Source: Escherichia phage RB43
Strand: one strand, 5' to 3'
DNA: 64,000 bases
Sequence record: NC_007023.1
Part shown: in pieces, positions 5,137 through 63,961 of the stretch
Layout: each line of letters begins with the position of its first letter
Numbering within the stretch: position 1 is the stretch's first letter
The notes under the pieces: model-generated
The model's input: the letters and a program-made list of their open reading frames with translations, nothing else
What the model was told of the DNA's origin: nothing
The model's database searches: none
Position numbers and translations under genes: made by a program

Positions 5137-5850
5137 ATGATTAACGAAAAAATGACACATCGCGAAGCGTTGGAAATCTTAGGGGCTACTGGTACTGAAT
5201 CCAAAGCCGAAATGTCCAAACTCTTCAAACGTGCTTCTCTGCGTAATCACCCCGATCGTGGTGGTAGCACAGAACTCATGCAAAAAATTAACCAGGCATA
5301 TGACGTAGTAACGAGAACAAACAGTTCTGGCGAAACTATGATGGATATGCGAGCGCGTCACGCAGCGAATAAAAAAGCGTGGGAAGAAAAACTGGATGCG
5401 TATTTTGTTGTTGCTAAGAACTATTTCAGCACGAAATTTAACGCACAGGAATTCGCTGAATACTTCACCAAATACACCGGACAACCGACGACCTTCACAC
5501 AGGAAGTCAAGAAAGATACAATTTCCGTATCTGCTGTGTTCCGTTTCACTTCTGGTGATGCTCACTTTGATTTCGCTTTCTACTGCAAGCCGGAAGAAGG
5601 TAAAGGTTTGATGTCTCCTGATGCAAGCGCATTGGGTAGTGTTTCTGTCAATACTCTGGTATTGGTTGGAACCAAAAAACATAAAATGGCAAGCCGTGAA
5701 TATCAATGGGGCAAAAACCCAGATAAGATCACACCAGAAAGCCTGTTCCCGTCCAAGAAACTTGCATCAATTTTCAGCCCGACACAAAAGAACCTCAAGT
5801 TCAAACGTGCTGACTATATGACTTCTTTCCGCAAGCACTTAGACGCATAA
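5137..5850 (+). CDS. J-domain (DnaJ-like) protein
   Basis: N-terminal J domain with HPD motif (RNHPDRGGSTELMQKINQAYDVV); start ATG 5137 after terminator and GAGGAA RBS. Confidence 0.7.
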   Translation: MINEKMTHREALEILGATGTESKAEMSKLFKRASLRNHPDRGGSTELMQKINQAYDVVTRTNSSGETMMDMRARHAANKKAWEEKLDAYFVVAKNYFSTKFNAQEFAEYFTKYTGQPTTFTQEVKKDTISVSAVFRFTSGDAHFDFAFYCKPEEGKGLMSPDASALGSVSVNTLVLVGTKKHKMASREYQWGKNPDKITPESLFPSKKLASIFSPTQKNLKFKRADYMTSFRKHLDA

Positions 5851-18171: not shown

Positions 18172-18248
18172 GGCCCTTTAGCTCAATTGGTAGAGCGAAC
18201 CCCTCATAAGGGTGTGGTTTCCGGTTCGAGTCACGGAAGGGGCCACCA
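18172..18248 (+). tRNA. tRNA with anticodon CAU (Met or Ile2), atypical T-arm
   Basis: 7-bp acceptor stem GGCCCTT/AAGGGCC, D-arm GCTC-AATTGGTA-GAGC, anticodon loop CTCATAA, T-loop TTCGAGT, 3' CCA; T-stem needs removal of A18233 to be canonical. Confidence 0.65.
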
Positions 18249-24181: not shown

Positions 24182-25682
24182 ACTTGCATCGACTCTGAAA
24201 ACCTCAGAGAAGGAAGCAATTTTAAAACGTAATGCAAACAACCTATTGTTGAAAGAGATTTTCCGAATTACGTACACAAAACAGATTATGTTCTATGTGC
24301 GTAAGTTTCCCCAGGTGGACGGCAAACCAGGAACAACCCCGCTATCAAATGCAATCGCGGACCTGATGTCCGATTTAGCATCGCGGAAGTATACAGGTAA
24401 TGCAGCCCGCGATCGCCTGATGGATATTGTGTCATCAGTAAACGAGAACGATCGCGAAGTGTTGCGCCGTATCATTAACCGCGATCTTGAATGTGGTGCG
24501 GGTACAACTCTGCCAAACCGCGTATGGAAGAAACTTATTCCAGAACAGCCTCAATGCCTCGCTACGCCGTTTAGTGAAAAAGCCTTAAAACGTATTCGCT
24601 TCCCTGCTTACTCTCAGCTTAAAGCCGATGGTGCGCGTTGTATGTCGGATCTGTTAGAAGACCAGATTCGCAAAGCAACCCGCGCTGGAAATGAGTATAC
24701 AGGTTTGGTTGATCTGGATAAGGATTTGAAAAAGATCCGCGAATATCTGGGTTATGATGTTGTGCTGGATGGAGAATTGATTTATGTCCCTACTGAAAAA
24801 GCTGTTATCGAACCTGCAAGCGGGATTCCTTTTAGTCTTGCTGGGTTTATGGATGATGACGACGATGATATTTCTGGTCTTGTGGCAGATGTTCGACGGG
24901 AAACTACCGAGAACGAAACACTGGAAGAAGCGAAACGCGAAGAGGGCAACGGGATTGTAAACAAATCCCTGAAAGGCACTATTAGCGACGAAGAACAGCG
25001 CAACATTGTATATGTTGTCTGGGACATCATACCGTATGAAGTTTATTATGGCGATGCTCCGAGTGTTCAACCGTATTGCGATCGTTTGTCTATCCTGGAT
25101 GGTGCTCTGGCTGGTTCTGGGGTATCGTGTGTTAAGTTAATCCCTTCTCGCGTTGTGTATAACATTGCAGAAGCAAAACTGGATTACAACAACTATCGAA
25201 ATGACGGTAAAGAGGGTTCTATCCTGAAAAATACCGATTTCGTCTGGAAGGATTCACGCGTTGCGGACCAGGTTAAGTTGAAGAACAAAACCCCGATTGA
25301 ACTACGGATCATCGACGTATACGCGCATACCAAAGAACCCCATAAAGTAGGTGGTTTTGTGGTTGAAGACTTATCAGGCGAAGCCAGGACAAACACAGGT
25401 TCCGGTCTGACTGATACAGACTACCGCTATGATGAAGATGGTATTACGCGTGTGTATATCCCGTTAGAAGAACGCGGAGAACTGGATCGCGAATACATCA
25501 TGGCGAACAAAGATGACTATATCGGCGCTATCGTCGAAATGGAAGTTGACGGACTCCAGAAGTCTAAGACGCGTAAGAAGGGCGAACCTGAATACAGTTT
25601 CTTCTTACCAATCATCAAGAAGATTCGACGCGACAAGACCGAACCGGATGACATTCACGTTATCTTTGCAGATTTGTTTTAA
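24159..25682 (+). CDS. 30: ATP-dependent DNA ligase gp30
   Basis: MILSILNELAS...KADGARC (adenylation KxDG)...collinear with T4 DNA ligase; 507 aa. Confidence 0.92.
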   Translation: MILSILNELASTLKTSEKEAILKRNANNLLLKEIFRITYTKQIMFYVRKFPQVDGKPGTTPLSNAIADLMSDLASRKYTGNAARDRLMDIVSSVNENDREVLRRIINRDLECGAGTTLPNRVWKKLIPEQPQCLATPFSEKALKRIRFPAYSQLKADGARCMSDLLEDQIRKATRAGNEYTGLVDLDKDLKKIREYLGYDVVLDGELIYVPTEKAVIEPASGIPFSLAGFMDDDDDDISGLVADVRRETTENETLEEAKREEGNGIVNKSLKGTISDEEQRNIVYVVWDIIPYEVYYGDAPSVQPYCDRLSILDGALAGSGVSCVKLIPSRVVYNIAEAKLDYNNYRNDGKEGSILKNTDFVWKDSRVADQVKLKNKTPIELRIIDVYAHTKEPHKVGGFVVEDLSGEARTNTGSGLTDTDYRYDEDGITRVYIPLEERGELDREYIMANKDDYIGAIVEMEVDGLQKSKTRKKGEPEYSFFLPIIKKIRRDKTEPDDIHVIFADLF

Positions 25683-25708
25683 ATAGCACTTTTTGTTAAA
25701 GAAGCCCC

Positions 25709-25737
25709 TTGCGTAAGTGAGGGGCTTTTGTTATTGT
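25709..25737 (+). promoter_or_regulatory. Conserved promoter cassette (TTGCGT-N17-TATTGT) embedded in terminator hairpin
   Basis: CCCCTTGCGTAAGTGAGGGGCTTTTGTTATTGT followed by leader CATCGAAACGAAACAGACAAAAGGAAC. Confidence 0.55.
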
Positions 25738-25774
25738 ACACACATCGAAACGAAACAGACAAAAGGAACATCCC

Positions 25775-26044
25775 ATGAACATCAATAAAGAACTCGAAGG
25801 CAAAGTAATCAACCTGGCAGACCGTGCGCGGTTTGAAAAGCTGGCTAATGGTGGTGAATCTCTGGGTGATGCAGTAGCATTATTCGAAAGACTTCGTGTT
25901 AAACGTGTTGTAGATGGCTGGGTTATCGCTCTCCCTGTTGCAGACGAAGACAAAGCGGTTTACGATCCTGTTGCCGATTCATGGGATATTGAAATCTGTC
26001 TGGTTAATATTGAAGTAGAACTTTGCTTCGAGGAAGAAAAATAA
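25775..26044 (+). CDS. hypothetical acidic protein (89 aa)
   Basis: ORF downstream of conserved promoter/leader. Confidence 0.55.
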   Translation: MNINKELEGKVINLADRARFEKLANGGESLGDAVALFERLRVKRVVDGWVIALPVADEDKAVYDPVADSWDIEICLVNIEVELCFEEEK

Positions 26045-28891: not shown

Positions 28892-30625
28892 TAATGGCTA
28901 AAAACCCATATTACAGCGACGAACAACGTCGCAGGATGCAAAATCCACAACAGCCACAACCCACCGTTCGTAAGATTAACGCAACGTTGGATAAGGCTTC
29001 AATGAACGAATTGAAGGACATCAACAATAACACTCTTGAAACCGCGCTGAATACGCTGGATATCAAAGAGGGTATGAAGTCCTTTGAAGATAGATTTAAA
29101 GACAAATTTGCAGGGTTTAAAGAGCAATTCGAACAGGATCAGGAACCTCTTGCAGAACAGTTACCTGATTTTGTCGGCCCCGCACGACCTGCATCACTGA
29201 CAGACAACAGCACAACCACTGTTGACAATTCCGTTAGTGTAAGAAACCATCCGTTTAGCAAGCTGGAAGAACATACAGGCACTATTGCAGAAGCGATAAC
29301 ATCGTTTATCGCTCTTGCAAGCAAGAAGCCGGAACCAGCACCTGAACCGGAACCCGTGCCGGAAGAAGAACCAGAAGTTGATAAGACGAAGAAGAAAATT
29401 CGTGATAAAGACAAAGACGAGAAGAAATTCAGTAAACGTGTATTAGCATTGCTTGATTCAATCAAAAACAATACATCAGGGATACTGTCTCGCTTTATTG
29501 GTTATTCACTCGAAGCACTGGCTAAATTCGCTAAGTGGACATTGATTATTGGTAGCATTGTATTCGCGATCGACGTTCTGGCTAAGGTTGTTCAGAAGTG
29601 GTTCCAGGATATTCTAAGCGAGGGTGAAGCCTCGAAAGAATTGTTCGGATCATATTTCAAGAACATCAAAACACTTGCTGAAAAAATCAATGATGGTCTG
29701 GAAAACTTCGATATGAGCAATCTGGGCGACTCACTGAAAAATCTCTTTTTGGAACCGTTCAAAGTTCTGGGTGATACGATTAAAACCGCTATCACTGAGG
29801 GTATCGGTAATCTGATTTACGCACTGGGTGAATATACCGGATCGGAAACCATTACTGATGCAGGGCGCGGAATGAAAGTATCTGCGTTGCGTGATAAACA
29901 GAAATATGGTTTAGAGATTGATCAGGATGACCTGATTATGCTCAAAGAGCAAGAAATTCAGGATCAGAAAGATAAGATTGTTGAAGCCCGTTCTCAACTT
30001 ACGGATCAGGTTAAAGCGACACAGGGCGCGTTCTCCTATAGTTTCGGGAAGCAGACAGACGCACAGAAAGCATTGTCTAAGCAACTCGAAGAAATGCGCG
30101 ATCGTGTTTCTCTGGAAGAACAGATCACGAAGGAGAAAGAAAAGGAACTCCAGATGCTGAAAGACAACCCTACTCTGTTAAAAGAGCAGGTGCAGAAGGA
30201 GAACACCGAGAACCGGAAACGTGTTGATGATTCTAAGCAGATCGAAGCAGCACAGCAGACAAGCTAAACCAAAAGCCGAAAGCGAGTTTGATCGAGGTGA
30301 AGAAATTTTGGGTAAAGACGATATCACCGCGAAAGATAAAGAGTTGATGGATAAGATCATGGAATCTCTTGAAGAGAAAAATGCTACCCAAAAACTCGAC
30401 GAAGACGATCGCGAAAAATATCGTGCGATGCTGGAACAATGGCAGAACAAGATTGCAGTAGTACCGGAAAGCAGCGCACCAATTGACAAGCAACCGGAAC
30501 CTGTGAGAGCACCAGTTGATGCAGTTGCTTCTAACAACGTCCAGGTAAACCAAAAAACAGTTAATAACATGGTACAACATTCAGTACAACGCACTGAACG
30601 TAAGCCATTGATTGCATTAGCATAA
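28888..30625 (+). CDS. 29: Baseplate hub / tail-length determinator gp29, apparently split into two overlapping frames
   Basis: 459-aa ORF (28888-30267) plus 134-aa continuation in +1 frame (30221-30625); sum about 590 aa equals T4 gp29; removing one A near 30258 fuses frames. Confidence 0.6.
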
Positions 30626-47333: not shown

Positions 47334-48392
47334 TTAGATACCTGTAAATGCTACGACAATCTGATAGTGGTCATCGAAGAATTCCCCTTGTCGTTGTACG
47401 ACCTCATGTAAGGGCATCCAGAACGCGTCTAACGCATCGTCAGAACCGCCCATAATACGTGGTAAACTTCCATCATTGTTAGGTTCTAACTTGATGTATT
47501 GCGCCACAGTCGGTTTTGAGAAGTGTACAGAACGCTTCGGATGATCGAACAGCATCGAATTGCGGATTGAACCACGAATAACCTTTTCAGGAACCTTGAT
47601 CCGAACCTCTTCGAGCAGTTCGCGGATCGCACAATCCAGGAACGTTTCATTTGCGTTTTTGTGTCCACCTGGCAGGGCTAGTGCGCCTTTTCCTGGTGCA
47701 AACTTACGACGAATTACCAGCAGGTGATTGTTGCACACAACCACGTTATCACCCGTGCAGCAGTTTAGCGCTTCTGGGTATGGGTAATTTTTGAATTTCT
47801 CCAATTCACTTTCCCATTTTTCGAATTCGTAGTACAGTCGCCAAAATGTATCCGTCATCATCCATGAATTGATATAACTCACAGTAGACGGAGGAACATA
47901 ACGAGATAGTTTCTTGTCCCATCCATTCTTATGCAAAAAGGATGGTTGGTCGTAAATCGGTCGCAGATAAATCTTCCCATCAACCTTAACCGGATCTACC
48001 GGAACATGAGTCCATCCAAACGCTTTCAGCCAGTATGAATCAGCATCTTTTTCGTAACCATAGATCGCGATGTTATCGCCTTTGGTTTCGTTGATTGCTG
48101 TACGAACAGAAGTTTTCCATTTTTCTTCGTTGTAAAGATAATCAGGAATATGAGCAAACTTAACACGACAAACATCTTCGTATTTGTATTCAGTCATCAG
48201 CCACGAAAAGATCATTCTTTCGCGTTCGTTCGCGGTCAGAGGATTTAAAACGTTGGGGTATGCGTAGGCAGAACCCAGGAGGATGTAAACGGTCTCCGAC
48301 TCTTCCAGTGCTTTACGCACCATCGCCGCATGACCATTATGGAAAGGTTGGAATCTGCCAATCACGACAGCTTTATCAAATTTGTGTTTCAT
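47334..48392 (-). CDS. Bifunctional NMN adenylyltransferase / Nudix hydrolase (NadM-Nudix type)
   Basis: N-terminal HxGH motif GRFQPFHNGH; C-terminal Nudix box GGHKNANETFLDCAIRELLEEV; GGAG RBS before ATG(rc) 48392. Confidence 0.85.
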   Translation of the reverse strand: MKHKFDKAVVIGRFQPFHNGHAAMVRKALEESETVYILLGSAYAYPNVLNPLTANERERMIFSWLMTEYKYEDVCRVKFAHIPDYLYNEEKWKTSVRTAINETKGDNIAIYGYEKDADSYWLKAFGWTHVPVDPVKVDGKIYLRPIYDQPSFLHKNGWDKKLSRYVPPSTVSYINSWMMTDTFWRLYYEFEKWESELEKFKNYPYPEALNCCTGDNVVVCNNHLLVIRRKFAPGKGALALPGGHKNANETFLDCAIRELLEEVRIKVPEKVIRGSIRNSMLFDHPKRSVHFSKPTVAQYIKLEPNNDGSLPRIMGGSDDALDAFWMPLHEVVQRQGEFFDDHYQIVVAFTGI

Positions 48393-50242: not shown

Positions 50243-50347
50243 AGCAATTCTCTAAGTGCTTACGGATCAACAATAGACCCGTTCCTGTATATATTTATAG
50301 CAAAAAAGGGGCTAAAAGCCCCTTATGTTAAATTAATCTAAAAATAC

Positions 50348-50741
50348 TTATGTTATATCGTACCAGCATAAACCACGTTCATAAGCACGGATCTTATTGG
50401 CATTGTGAATGTTTTCATCCCATCCAATCACACCCGCTTTCATGCGTTTCAGTTCCTGGCGCATTTTAACGCGTACTTTTGAATCAATCTTTTTCTTTGC
50501 GATCGAAAGCATCGCGGGAGATATCACCATGCGCCTTGTTGCCGTCACGATTCAAATTGTTATCGAACCGGATATATGCGCAACCTGATTTATGTTTCCA
50601 GTTGGTTGTGTACCAACGAAGACCATCAGGATCGCGCCCGTGTTGTGCATAATACTCAGAATATGCCTTTGTCTCTTCGATCTGTTCCAGAGAAGAAAGG
50701 TCACGGATAGGAACATATTTGTTACGGTAAGTACGGCTCAT
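50348..50741 (-). CDS. hypothetical protein, apparently split at an A5 run (sense) near 50500 (about 129 aa if fused)
   Basis: Two overlapping protein-like frames joined by removing one A from GAAAAAG. Confidence 0.35.
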
Positions 50742-50771: not shown

Positions 50772-51353
50772 TTAGCAATCTACGCCAACTTTATCAAGCA
50801 CTTTTTCATGATAATGTTTCCGGCATAACGAAACATATTTGTCTTCGGCTCCGATTTCGACTTGCTCCCCTTCGGTTACGAAGTTGCCTTGTGCGTCGAT
50901 ACGCGCGACCGTGGTTGCTTTGCGCCCACAGTGACACATTCCCCGTAGTTCTCGGATCTCGTCAGCCCATGCGAGCAACCAGTAAGAACCCTCGAACAGA
51001 TTCAACTGAAAGTCGGTACGCAGCCCGTAACACATTACAGGAATTTCGAGTTCATCAACAACGCGACACAGATCGAAAACGTTTTTCTTCGAAAGGAACT
51101 GTGCTTCGTCAACAAAAATACAGGAAATATTATTCCGGCGTTGAATGTCCCAGAACAGATCCATGCTGGGTGAAATCAGTTCACATGATGCGCTTAACCC
51201 TACGCGAGAAGACACCGTATGTGAACGAGTATCAAGCATAGGCTTGTAAATCACTACGTTCATACCACGTTCTTTGTAGTTGTATGCGTCGGTCAGCAGT
51301 CGTGCGCTTTTACCAGCATTCATTGATGCGTAATGATAATACAGTTTAGCCAT
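50772..51353 (-). CDS. tk: Thymidine kinase
   Basis: 193 aa; P-loop SMNAGKSARLL, VDEAQFL, zinc ribbon CHCGRKA...SLCRKH; collinear with T4 Tk. Confidence 0.92.
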   Translation of the reverse strand: MAKLYYHYASMNAGKSARLLTDAYNYKERGMNVVIYKPMLDTRSHTVSSRVGLSASCELISPSMDLFWDIQRRNNISCIFVDEAQFLSKKNVFDLCRVVDELEIPVMCYGLRTDFQLNLFEGSYWLLAWADEIRELRGMCHCGRKATTVARIDAQGNFVTEGEQVEIGAEDKYVSLCRKHYHEKVLDKVGVDC

Positions 51354-51529
51354 TTGCAGCGTCCTTGATCTCTTTCTTCACGAACAGAATGATATCTTCG
51401 ATTTTGTTTTCGATGTAGCACATGTTTGACATTACGCGCTTCTGTATCATCATCGGTCGCGTAGTCCATGTATAATTCACCCAGTTCTTTCAGTTTGTGC
51501 GTCAACAGCTTTTCTTCTTGCGGTCTCAT
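51320..51529 (-). CDS. hypothetical protein (69 aa)
   Basis: ORF. Confidence 0.4.
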   Translation of the reverse strand: MRPQEEKLLTHKLKELGELYMDYATDDDTEARNVKHVLHRKQNRRYHSVREERDQGRCKWLNCIIITHQ

Positions 51530-51711
51530 TCGCGAGATTCCCTTCTTTCATCGTCGATTAGCTGGTCGATGAAATCAACGATGTCATCAAACCAATCTAC
51601 GGCTTCTTGAGCAGAAACCGAACCTTTCCCACTACCACTCATAAAGCGTTCGCGAGCGTCAGCAAACTTTTCGAGTTTTGAATACAGCTTTTCTTTATGT
51701 TCCTGGATCAT
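51526..51711 (-). CDS. hypothetical acidic protein (61 aa)
   Basis: ORF. Confidence 0.45.
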   Translation of the reverse strand: MIQEHKEKLYSKLEKFADARERFMSGSGKGSVSAQEAVDWFDDIVDFIDQLIDDERRESRE

Positions 51712-52200
51712 GATAAATCTACCGTTTTCATGTTAACGTAGGGATCGAAATGTACCACGATGATTGGATAGTCGCCAGTGGCCTTATCAATGATGTCATA
51801 GATGCGCATCCAATCGCCCCCAGCAAGCCCCGCACCAATAAGAGGGGTAACGATAGGCAATTGAACAGGACACGCCTTAGCGCGTTCTACAGCAGATTTG
51901 AAGCATGATTCAATCGCATCATAATCGACTTGTGGGCCTTCACCCCAAAATTTGTATTGGGTGTACGCGTTAAACAGAAGTTTGTTTCCGTCCTGATAAA
52001 CGGAGTTACGCCCCAACTTAGATTGATTGCCCTTCATCGTCATTGCGTCTTCTTTAAACGCACCAGGGATCTTTTTCTTCACTTCTTTGGCGATACCCGC
52101 GCCCATGTTACCAGAAACCAGTTACCACCCCATGAATTAGGTGTACATCGCGATTAAGGAACAGTTCAACCGCGTTACCTTTGATTTCTTTAATGATCAT
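51708..52200 (-). CDS. TARG1/OARD1-like macrodomain protein, interrupted by a frameshift
   Basis: N-terminal 30-codon ORF (MIIKEIKGNAVELFLNRDVHLIHGVV...) then +1 frame MGAGIAKEVKKKIPGAF... resembling the TARG1 CRMGAGIAVLFKKKFG core; frames join if one T is removed from sense GGTTTC or a 7-nt unit from GTTACCA-GAAACCA-GTTACCA. Confidence 0.6.
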
Positions 52201-52434
52201 TGTTTATTACCCATTCGATAGCCGATCCCAATAACCAGCCCCATTATAATCACAACAGTGATCAGTATTGCAAATTGCATACCTATGCTCATTTGAATTG
52301 ATCATCCCATATTTGCCACGCTTCCAGTTCATCATTGTATTCAGGTAATGAACGTTCGCCAGGCTTCATTAAACAGTACCATATGATAATTGCAACAGCA
52401 ATAACCATTCCATAGAAAATAATTAGTCCTATCA

Positions 52435-57431: not shown

Positions 57432-57827
57432 TTATGCAAGTTCAATATGCGGTGCGTCGATGAATTTTGTTTCGATCGGAAGATTAGGATCATTCTTCCA
57501 GTTGATACCGAAACGCAGTTTCACACCGAGTTCATCACCAGCTTTTTTCATTGCATTCAGAACAGGCAACCACACTTTCGGGTTTTTCTGCCAACCTTCC
57601 GGCAGTTTGCTAGGATACAGATCCACAGCATCGCCTGTAATGTGTTTTGAATTCATGGTTTGTGACGCGCCAGTGCGAACGTATTCGCGTTGCTGTTCGA
57701 CGGTACGCAATCCTTCACGTACACCGAAATCTTCTGGGGATAGCTCCAGAGCGCGTTGTACAACCTTAACCAGTTCAGGTTTAACACCTTTCAGGTTATT
57801 GATACTTTTTTTGGCTAATTTAAACAT
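57432..57827 (-). CDS. Endolysin, peptidase M15 family (L-alanyl-D-glutamate peptidase-like)
   Basis: 131 aa; zinc-binding pattern SKHITGDAVDL ... DAPHIE typical of M15/VanY-like phage endolysins. Confidence 0.6.
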   Translation of the reverse strand: MFKLAKKSINNLKGVKPELVKVVQRALELSPEDFGVREGLRTVEQQREYVRTGASQTMNSKHITGDAVDLYPSKLPEGWQKNPKVWLPVLNAMKKAGDELGVKLRFGINWKNDPNLPIETKFIDAPHIELA

Positions 57828-63060: not shown

Positions 63061-63339
63061 TTATGCCATTTTCTTAGCGAGTTTCCAGGCGGCTTTGAAC
63101 GCCGGAACATCGTCAATTTCAATCCAGAAACCAGAACCGAAACCATCATTGTAGCAAGGGCAACCGTCGCAGTAGTTTTCCCAGGTCATCACTTCGCCAC
63201 CAACAGAAGCACCAGTTTCCATCGCACGTAACGCATCTTCAACTTTTTCCAGTTTTTCCGCGTTGTCGTCATAAATGATGAAGTACCATTTGCCGTTGTA
63301 TTCGTTACCCAGTTTGATTGCTTCGCGAACAAGTTTCAT
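63061..63339 (-). CDS. hypothetical Cys-containing protein (about 92 aa)
   Basis: ATG(rc) 63339 with AAAGGAA RBS downstream of conserved promoter. Confidence 0.5.
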   Translation of the reverse strand: MKLVREAIKLGNEYNGKWYFIIYDDNAEKLEKVEDALRAMETGASVGGEVMTWENYCDGCPCYNDGFGSGFWIEIDDVPAFKAAWKLAKKMA

Positions 63340-63376
63340 GATGATTTCCTTTTGTCTGTTTCGTTTCGATGTGTGT

Positions 63377-63405
63377 AATATAACAAAACCCCTCACCATA
63401 GGCAA
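63377..63405 (-). promoter_or_regulatory. Conserved promoter cassette (TTGCCT-N17-TATATT)
   Basis: Minus-strand CCCCTTGCCTATGGTGAGGGGTTTTGTTATATT then leader CACACATCGAAACGAAACAGACAAAAGGAA. Confidence 0.55.
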
Positions 63406-63430
63406 GGGGTTTCTTTAACAAAAAGTGCTA

Positions 63431-63961
63431 TTACCATCCGTTAGGGTTGCGGAAATGTGTCTGCCAGTAACGCAGTTGTTCGCGGCTCATTTGCTGGGTG
63501 TCAATTACCATGCTATGAATCATTTCTAACATAACACGGGTTTGTGCGACATCCTCCAGGCTCGCTATACGCTGTTTTAAGGCTTCGTTCTCTTTCTCCA
63601 ACTCAACCATACGGTCGTATGCTTTGATGCGCTCCAGTGGCATATCAGGGCGCTCTTTGAGGACACGGGCGCGGGACACTTCACATTCATGATTCGCTTT
63701 CCAGTGTTCAGCCTCTTTGACGGCTTTTTGTTCGTTATGACGTGACATAGAAAGGTCACTAACCAGATCCATAACAGTTTGCGGATCTACGGTTTCAAGG
63801 TAATTCCCCAGATCCGTTTCCCATCCTTTAACCTGTGTCGGACTATCACCATAAGGAACTACATACTGAAATACACGTTTATATTCTTTCCCACTGAATC
63901 CGTAATCTTGATTACCGCGAATAGAACCATTATCAGCAGCAGTCCATTTAGAACCCATCAT
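63431..63961 (-). CDS. hypothetical protein with C-terminal coiled coil (176 aa)
   Basis: ORF. Confidence 0.5.
   Translation of the reverse strand: MMGSKWTAADNGSIRGNQDYGFSGKEYKRVFQYVVPYGDSPTQVKGWETDLGNYLETVDPQTVMDLVSDLSMSRHNEQKAVKEAEHWKANHECEVSRARVLKERPDMPLERIKAYDRMVELEKENEALKQRIASLEDVAQTRVMLEMIHSMVIDTQQMSREQLRYWQTHFRNPNGW

Follow-up and report, generated by a model that had tools for sequence, protein, structure and literature searches.

The split tk.4 (adfM) macrodomain gene of Escherichia phage RB43 is probably an error of the 2005 genome record

The macrodomain locus in the RB43 record

The DNA analysed here (the window) is the whole of a 64,000-nucleotide (64-kb) stretch of the Escherichia phage RB43 record NC_007023.1. 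On its minus strand, between the genes of a vs-like valyl-tRNA synthetase modifier and thymidine kinase, lies a macrodomain gene that is out of frame as it stands (Table 1). A preliminary description had reported a frameshifted macrodomain gene at this place, and both of its ORFs and its heptamers were found where it had put them. Residues 1-24 of the shorter ORF are authentic, and residues 25-30 are frameshift read-through up to the TAA codon. The two frames overlap briefly (ACT GGT TTC TGG TAA in the sense strand), and the plus strand reads GTTACCA GAAACCA GTTACCA at 52107-52127.

Table 1. Coordinates of the macrodomain gene, its parts and its neighbours in the window
Feature	Position	Strand	Remarks
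tk.4/adfM-like macrodomain gene	51708..52200	-	493 nt, out of frame; split into 30-aa and 132-aa ORFs
N-terminal 30-aa ORF	52200..52108	-	MIIKEIKGNAVELFLNRDVHLIHGVVTGFW; ATG at 52200, TAA at 52108-52110
C-terminal 132-aa ORF	52106..51708	-	starts MGAGIAKEVKKKIPGAF; one frame over from the 30-aa ORF
Four-insertion stretch, 25 nt	52107..52131	-	codons G24-C25-N26-C27-F28-C29
vs-like valyl-tRNA synthetase modifier, 107 aa	52435..52758	-	upstream neighbour; synteny marker
Thymidine kinase (tk), 193 aa	50772..51353	-	downstream neighbour; synteny marker

The RB43 gene has been named Tk.4 since 2005, in truncated form: by exact-sequence look-up, the Tk.4 protein of the source record (AAX78669.1 / YP_239123.1) is the 132-aa ORF itself. 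An exact look-up of this ORF in the contig collection gave no match. One tk.4 orthologue has been listed with a "partial alignment" to the A1pp domain (PMC1524935), and we infer that the listed orthologue is that of RB43.

Rfam, run over the whole window, gave nothing at the macrodomain locus. It found one tRNA in the window, at 18172-18244 (+), where Buttiauxella phage GuL6 is annotated with two adjacent tRNAs (Met, Gly). An intergenic cassette of ~95 nt occurs twice in opposite orientation, at 25682-25779 (+) and 63335-63432 (-), with ~90% identity between the copies. It contains a GC-rich hairpin and a T-run; where one arm of the hairpin has a G-to-A change, the opposite arm has C-to-T. After these comes an exactly conserved 32-nt leader, TACACACATCGAAACGAAACAGACAAAAGGAA, immediately upstream of the ATG of the following gene; the cassette may be a shared terminator with a regulatory 5' leader. 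The stretch at 5145-5846 is the only one in the window without a megablast match to record HE981739. HE981739 is an orf057::gfp record by its description, so the unmatched stretch presumably corresponds to orf057w (rki; the J-domain protein described in PMC3486835), whose place gfp has taken there.

Family, fold and active site of the protein

The intact gene is 489 nt long and encodes 162 aa. It is present in this form in the two records of RB43-GVA (HE858210 and HE981739), in GuL6 and in a Logan contig (SRR25571669; locus L009, 98% identical). The intact protein scored 34.3 bits against Pfam Macro (PF01661; cut-off 22), and the 132-aa ORF alone, with 26.1 bits, was also above the threshold, which bears out the identification as a macrodomain. 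The intact protein also matched phrog_335 (annotated "phosphatase") with an E-value of 4.6e-59. The protein collection held 3,488 homologues, and those listed were nearly all single-domain proteins of ~145-170 aa. By tblastn the family is present in 2,915 phage records, including the "tk.4" of RB69. A 189-aa homologue (P0023), which is 64% identical to the macrodomain query over 77% of the query's length, also matches a thymidine-kinase Pfam family. In that other phage, tk.4 and tk may be fused, or a gene running from tk.4 into tk may have been called wrongly.

The closest comparison is with T4. T4 Tk.4 has 35% identity to the RB43 protein over the full length (BLASTP, 157 columns, E 6e-29). 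Both are of the same single-domain size and contain HGCNC...MG.G.A, YTQ (Gln at the catalytic position) and IGAG..G.W. The gene order is also alike, with vs-like, macrodomain and tk genes in RB43 and vs - tk.4 - tk.3/2/1 - tk in T4. The equivalent of the vs-like gene matches PF26829 (ValRS_modifier) in L009 and is annotated as such in phage Lw1. Judged by sequence and synteny, the locus is the RB43 orthologue of T4 tk.4 (adfM).

An AlphaFold model was built from the family alignment, the first sequence of which (P0001) is 99% identical to the RB43 protein. The model (pLDDT 96.1, pTM 0.91) has the three-layer alpha/beta/alpha macro fold. When it was compared with the PDB by Foldseek, the top match was TARG1 (4J5S; E 3.3e-9, TM 0.71/0.81), followed by BT1257, Poa1p and DarG; the TARG1-like fold proposed in the preliminary description was therefore recovered, with DarG also among the matches. 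There were 175 PDB matches at E <= 0.001, and the best 50 of the 175 are macrodomains or designed hydrolases. The latter we take to be built on a macrodomain scaffold. In a profile search of solved structures the order was BT1257 (8.8e-18), SCO6735 (4.8e-16), DarG (~2e-10), TARG1 (~1e-9) and then Poa1p.

The DarG macrodomains of Thermus aquaticus (5M31/5M3E) and Mycobacterium tuberculosis (5M3I) have the same fold as the RB43 protein. However, the RB43 protein lacks the C-terminal DarT-binding domain of DarG (162 aa against a model of ~330 positions), has Gln in place of Lys80, and its gene has typical phage early genes as immediate neighbours. Among the ORFs read near the locus, none stood out as a DarT gene. 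The PADLOC DarG model matched with its macrodomain half only (E 3.4e-11). The score against NCBIfam antitoxin_DarG was 33.8 bits, far below the cut-off of 250, with model positions 15-153 of 338 matched, and the protein is not an antitoxin DarG by this model.

TARG1/OARD1 aligned to the RB43 protein with an hhalign probability of 97% at ~21% identity, and the two share the phosphate-binding loop ..C.MGAGIA..FKKK.., to which the preliminary description had pointed. The numbering of the TARG1 query sequence agrees with K84/D125 of PMC9411070. In this alignment T83-K84 of TARG1 pairs with T79-Q80, and Q80 is invariant in 40 family members. GCGLD125RLQW aligns with GAGLA125GGDW, in which A125 is nearly invariant. 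Both catalytic residues of TARG1, Lys84 and Asp125, are thus absent (Gln80/Ala125), an outcome that the preliminary description had named as counting against its proposal. By profile alignment, the family Gln takes the place of the first K of PTKKHW in each of the two DarG structures, so that DarG Lys80 is absent as well. The fold is therefore TARG1-like, without the catalytic residues of TARG1 or DarG.

The residues present are instead those of another subclass. The family Gln lies opposite the Q of NMIGQHG in 2AFC and 5E3B (BT1257 and SCO6735), and hGCn aligns with HxCN; the Gln together with H-x-C-N, which characterizes the SCO6735/BT1257 subclass, is present in the RB43 family. Asn26 matches the active-site Asn22 of DarG by motif position. 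The Asn at this place is an active-site residue in DarG (N22) and PhiKZ AdfM (N23) and has been mutated in SCO6735 (N27S) (PMC9411070, PMC13309987), and roles for Q85, H24 and N27 have been described in SCO6735 (PMC9411070). SCO6735 of Streptomyces coelicolor and BT1257 of Bacteroides, the best profile matches, are bacterial chromosomal genes, whereas the RB43 protein is from a phage. An elongated "mobile loop" after the Gln is described as typical of the SCO6735 subclass (PMC9411070); in the profile alignment, the phage family has ~3 residues fewer at this place than BT1257 and SCO6735. We conclude that the RB43 protein is a single-domain macrodomain of the TARG1/DarG (ALC1-like) class and belongs to the Gln-type subgroup with SCO6735 and BT1257.

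Four extra bases and the errors of the record

Alignment of the gene in the window with those of RB43-GVA, GuL6 and Lw1 showed that the break consists of four single G's inserted in the sense strand inside 17 nt, with a net gain of 4 nt. On the plus strand the extra C's are at 52112, 52119, 52126 and one place within the run 52128-52131. Where the relatives have CAT GGG TGT AAC TGT TTC TGT AAC, the window has CAT GGGG TGGT AAC TGGT TTC TGGT AAC. All four G's are absent from HE858210, HE981739, GuL6 and the L009 contig, and the macrodomain gene is uninterrupted in the annotation of Lw1. The megablast identity of the locus is 99.5% to both RB43-GVA records and 98.1% to GuL6, and the only other in-gene difference from RB43-GVA is one synonymous Leu change at 52016.

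The peptide actually encoded here is H23-G24-C25-N26-C27-F28-C29-N30. In the 40-sequence family alignment, which extends down to ~40% identity, G24, C25 and N26 are invariant and H23, C27 and C29 nearly so. H-G-C-N-C-F-C is the most conserved motif of the family, and all four insertions land there. The N-terminal peptide given in the preliminary description was right through H23-G24, but the VV that followed should read C-N. The one-step repairs that it offered, removal of one T from GGTTTC or of one heptamer, do rejoin the frames, but neither is the real difference; they would give HGVVTG(S/F)GNMG against the invariant HGCNCFCNMG. The opposite case, that the Illumina and other assemblies are wrong, was considered and rejected, because the HGCNCFC motif of thousands of homologues is encoded only by their version.

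The short overlap of the frames and the imperfect 3 x 7-nt repeat at the site might point to a programmed +1 ribosomal frameshift or to a slippage-prone repeat that turns the gene on and off, the latter having been put forward in the preliminary description. This idea is almost certainly wrong. Read directly, the sequence of the overlap contains none of the known +1-type slippery motifs, and any product would be without the invariant C25-N26-C27. All of the relatives are in frame and have three 6-nt units each, a 3 x 6-nt coding repeat whose unit number is constant; the 3 x 7-nt repeat of the window is made of the same Cys-Asn, Cys-Phe and Cys-Asn coding units with one base added to each. The change is one base per unit, not an altered number of units, and neither a conserved frameshift site nor a variable repeat number was found in the relatives. 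The heptamer triplet, at 21 nt, is too short for a repeat array, and Tandem Repeats Finder gave no array in 51900-52300, even at a score of 30.

The whole window was also aligned to RB43-GVA, with the engineered gfp replacement left out (58,171 aligned columns, 58 kb). The two differ by 37 one-base indels (20 bases extra in the window and 17 missing) against 6-7 substitutions. At all 30 of the indels that could be judged, GuL6 agrees with the GVA version (<=3 mismatches), and it agrees with the window version at none of the 37; at the remaining 7, GuL6 is too diverged to judge. L009 has none of the 7 indels that fall within its range. The real divergence in this comparison amounts to 106 substitutions, an in-frame indel of 12 nt and an indel of 1 nt at 50319, in a gap between listed ORFs of the window. 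Of the 23 GVA genes touched by window-private indels, 21 are frameshifted. They are also clustered, with 14 pairs <=30 nt apart against 0.7 expected at random, and 8 such pairs are still present when the macrodomain cluster is left out. This clustering fits local low-quality stretches.

Outside the macrodomain locus, 33 private indels lie at 16392-60880 and break 20 other genes. The gp29-like baseplate hub/tail-length gene at 28894-30625 (+), the product of which is 576 aa long in RB43-GVA and matches phrog_7361 (E = 0), carries a single uncompensated extra C at 30260, in codon 458. By established T4 genetics this gene is essential. Its frameshift would be lethal if real. Two of the affected genes are close to the macrodomain gene. 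Counting downstream from the macrodomain gene, the second gene (60 aa, at 51346-51529 (-)), which overlaps the start of tk, contains one T too many at 51425, and the 130-aa gene just beyond tk, at 50348-50741 (-), has an extra G at 50516 that leaves ORFs of 85 and 66 aa. Pairs of +1 and -1 indels occur at 47940 and 47973 and at 57812 and 57816. Each pair preserves the gene length and disturbs the frame only over the short distance between its two indels; a NadR-like adenylyltransferase/Nudix gene contains one pair and an endolysin gene the other. Taken together, the indel pattern, the broken genes and the clustering make a viable phage with the sequence of the window implausible.

It could be argued that the gene is a genuine pseudogene, and that laboratory passage on DarTG2-free hosts had truly cost the sequenced stock a dispensable anti-defence gene. 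Since tk.4 is non-essential in T4 except on DarTG2 hosts, such a loss would be tolerable in the laboratory. For ~20 years the Geneva stock (RB43-GVA) was propagated separately from the stock that gave the published sequence, and the two have different host ranges (PMC3157838), so that some of the differences between the records should be real. Re-sequencing of RB43 by Illumina gave at least 107 nucleotide differences from the published sequence, which were not called errors (PMC3486835). Nevertheless, a pseudogene is quite improbable. It needs four independent +G events in 17 nt of a gene that otherwise shows no degeneration, and the same record breaks a hub gene needed for viability. In addition, the indel-to-substitution ratio of 37:7 is the reverse of real divergence, as seen with L009 (106 substitutions and no frameshifts).

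That the same base should be inserted four times, each time in a T-G-T context, is odd and was counted against a record error. The four G's could be real if they came from one multi-site event, a templated or misaligned repair in the TGTAAC/TGTTTC/TGTAAC repeat that inactivated an anti-DarT macrodomain in the course of decades of growth on hosts lacking DarTG2. The stock would then have carried a natural allele that had lost a counter-defence function and bore an unusual mutational signature; we consider it highly improbable. A search of the 64-kb window for a donor copy of the 25-nt frameshifted stretch (<=3 mismatches) matched only the locus itself, which gives no hint of a templated conversion from a source inside the window. 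A scan of IMG/VR found neither the exact frameshifted 33-mer nor the intact 29-mer and is uninformative about the alleles.

We therefore return to an error of the record. The RB43 genome was obtained from plasmid shotgun libraries that covered regions of novel ORFs poorly; PCR was used to close these regions, and the authors suspected toxicity (PMC1524935). This history would suit one sub-type of artefact, in which the insertions were real in a plasmid clone or PCR product and not in the phage. That sub-type is unlikely, as a toxic insert would already be inactivated by one frameshift, so that four insertions of one type are unexpected, and there is no indication of toxicity for this macrodomain. 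More generally, we infer from the sequence comparisons that the insertions arose in sequencing, assembly or cloning. The four spurious bases would then belong to a record-wide scatter of clustered one-base indel errors, and the gene would be intact in phage RB43 itself. With the gene intact in four independent assemblies and indels throughout the record, a sequencing indel is the favoured one among the three explanations that the preliminary description had offered for the break. We put the probability that the frameshift is an artefact of the 2005 RB43 record NC_007023, and not biology, at about 90%.

Predicted function and meaning for RB43 and the Tk.4 family

In T4, tk.4 is the single gene needed on a DarTG2 host; a clean knockout is sensitive, and the gene has been named adfM (preprint, bioRxiv 10.1101/2025.11.20.689424). 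The anti-DarT role suggested in the preliminary description agrees with this sensitivity. SCO6735 cleaves DarT-made thymidine-ADP-ribose on DNA and rescues DarT toxicity, and either Q85A or Q85E kills its activity (PMC9411070). PhiKZ gp104 (AdfM) of the chimalliviruses, by description a phage single-domain DarG2-like macrodomain, has been shown to clear DNA of DarT2 ADP-ribose in vitro and to protect the phage (PMC13309987; 2026). It is of the Lys type (N23/K78) and is imported into the phage nucleus, whereas the RB43 protein is of the Gln type.

By analogy with these systems, the RB43 protein would hydrolyse the thymidine-linked ADP-ribose that DarT2-type toxins put on phage ssDNA, and this removal would neutralise the DarTG2 defence and protect the phage. 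Given an intact gene, we consider this activity likely. An enzymatic role is plausible because SCO6735, also of the Gln type, is an active hydrolase although the TARG1 residues are absent. On the other hand, the anti-DarTG2 phenotype is that of T4 only, reported in a preprint, and an identity of 35% separates the RB43 protein from T4 Tk.4. Regulation of the phage's own ADP-ribosyltransferases, the other role mentioned in the preliminary description, is less well supported, since an alt orthologue is apparently missing from RB43.

Neither the gene nor its likely role is new, and the RB43 gene is an ordinary member of the Tk.4/AdfM family. The record NC_007023 truncates Tk.4 to 132 aa, and 21 genes in these 64 kb are split or cut short by ~37 one-base indels. 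Gene calls taken from this old record between 16392 and 60880 are unreliable, and the Illumina records HE858210/HE981739 should be used in its place for RB43 gene calls, pseudogene claims and counts of novel ORFs. For the family, these results indicate that T4-type Tk.4 proteins belong to the Gln type together with SCO6735, as opposed to the Lys type of DarG, TARG1 and PhiKZ AdfM.
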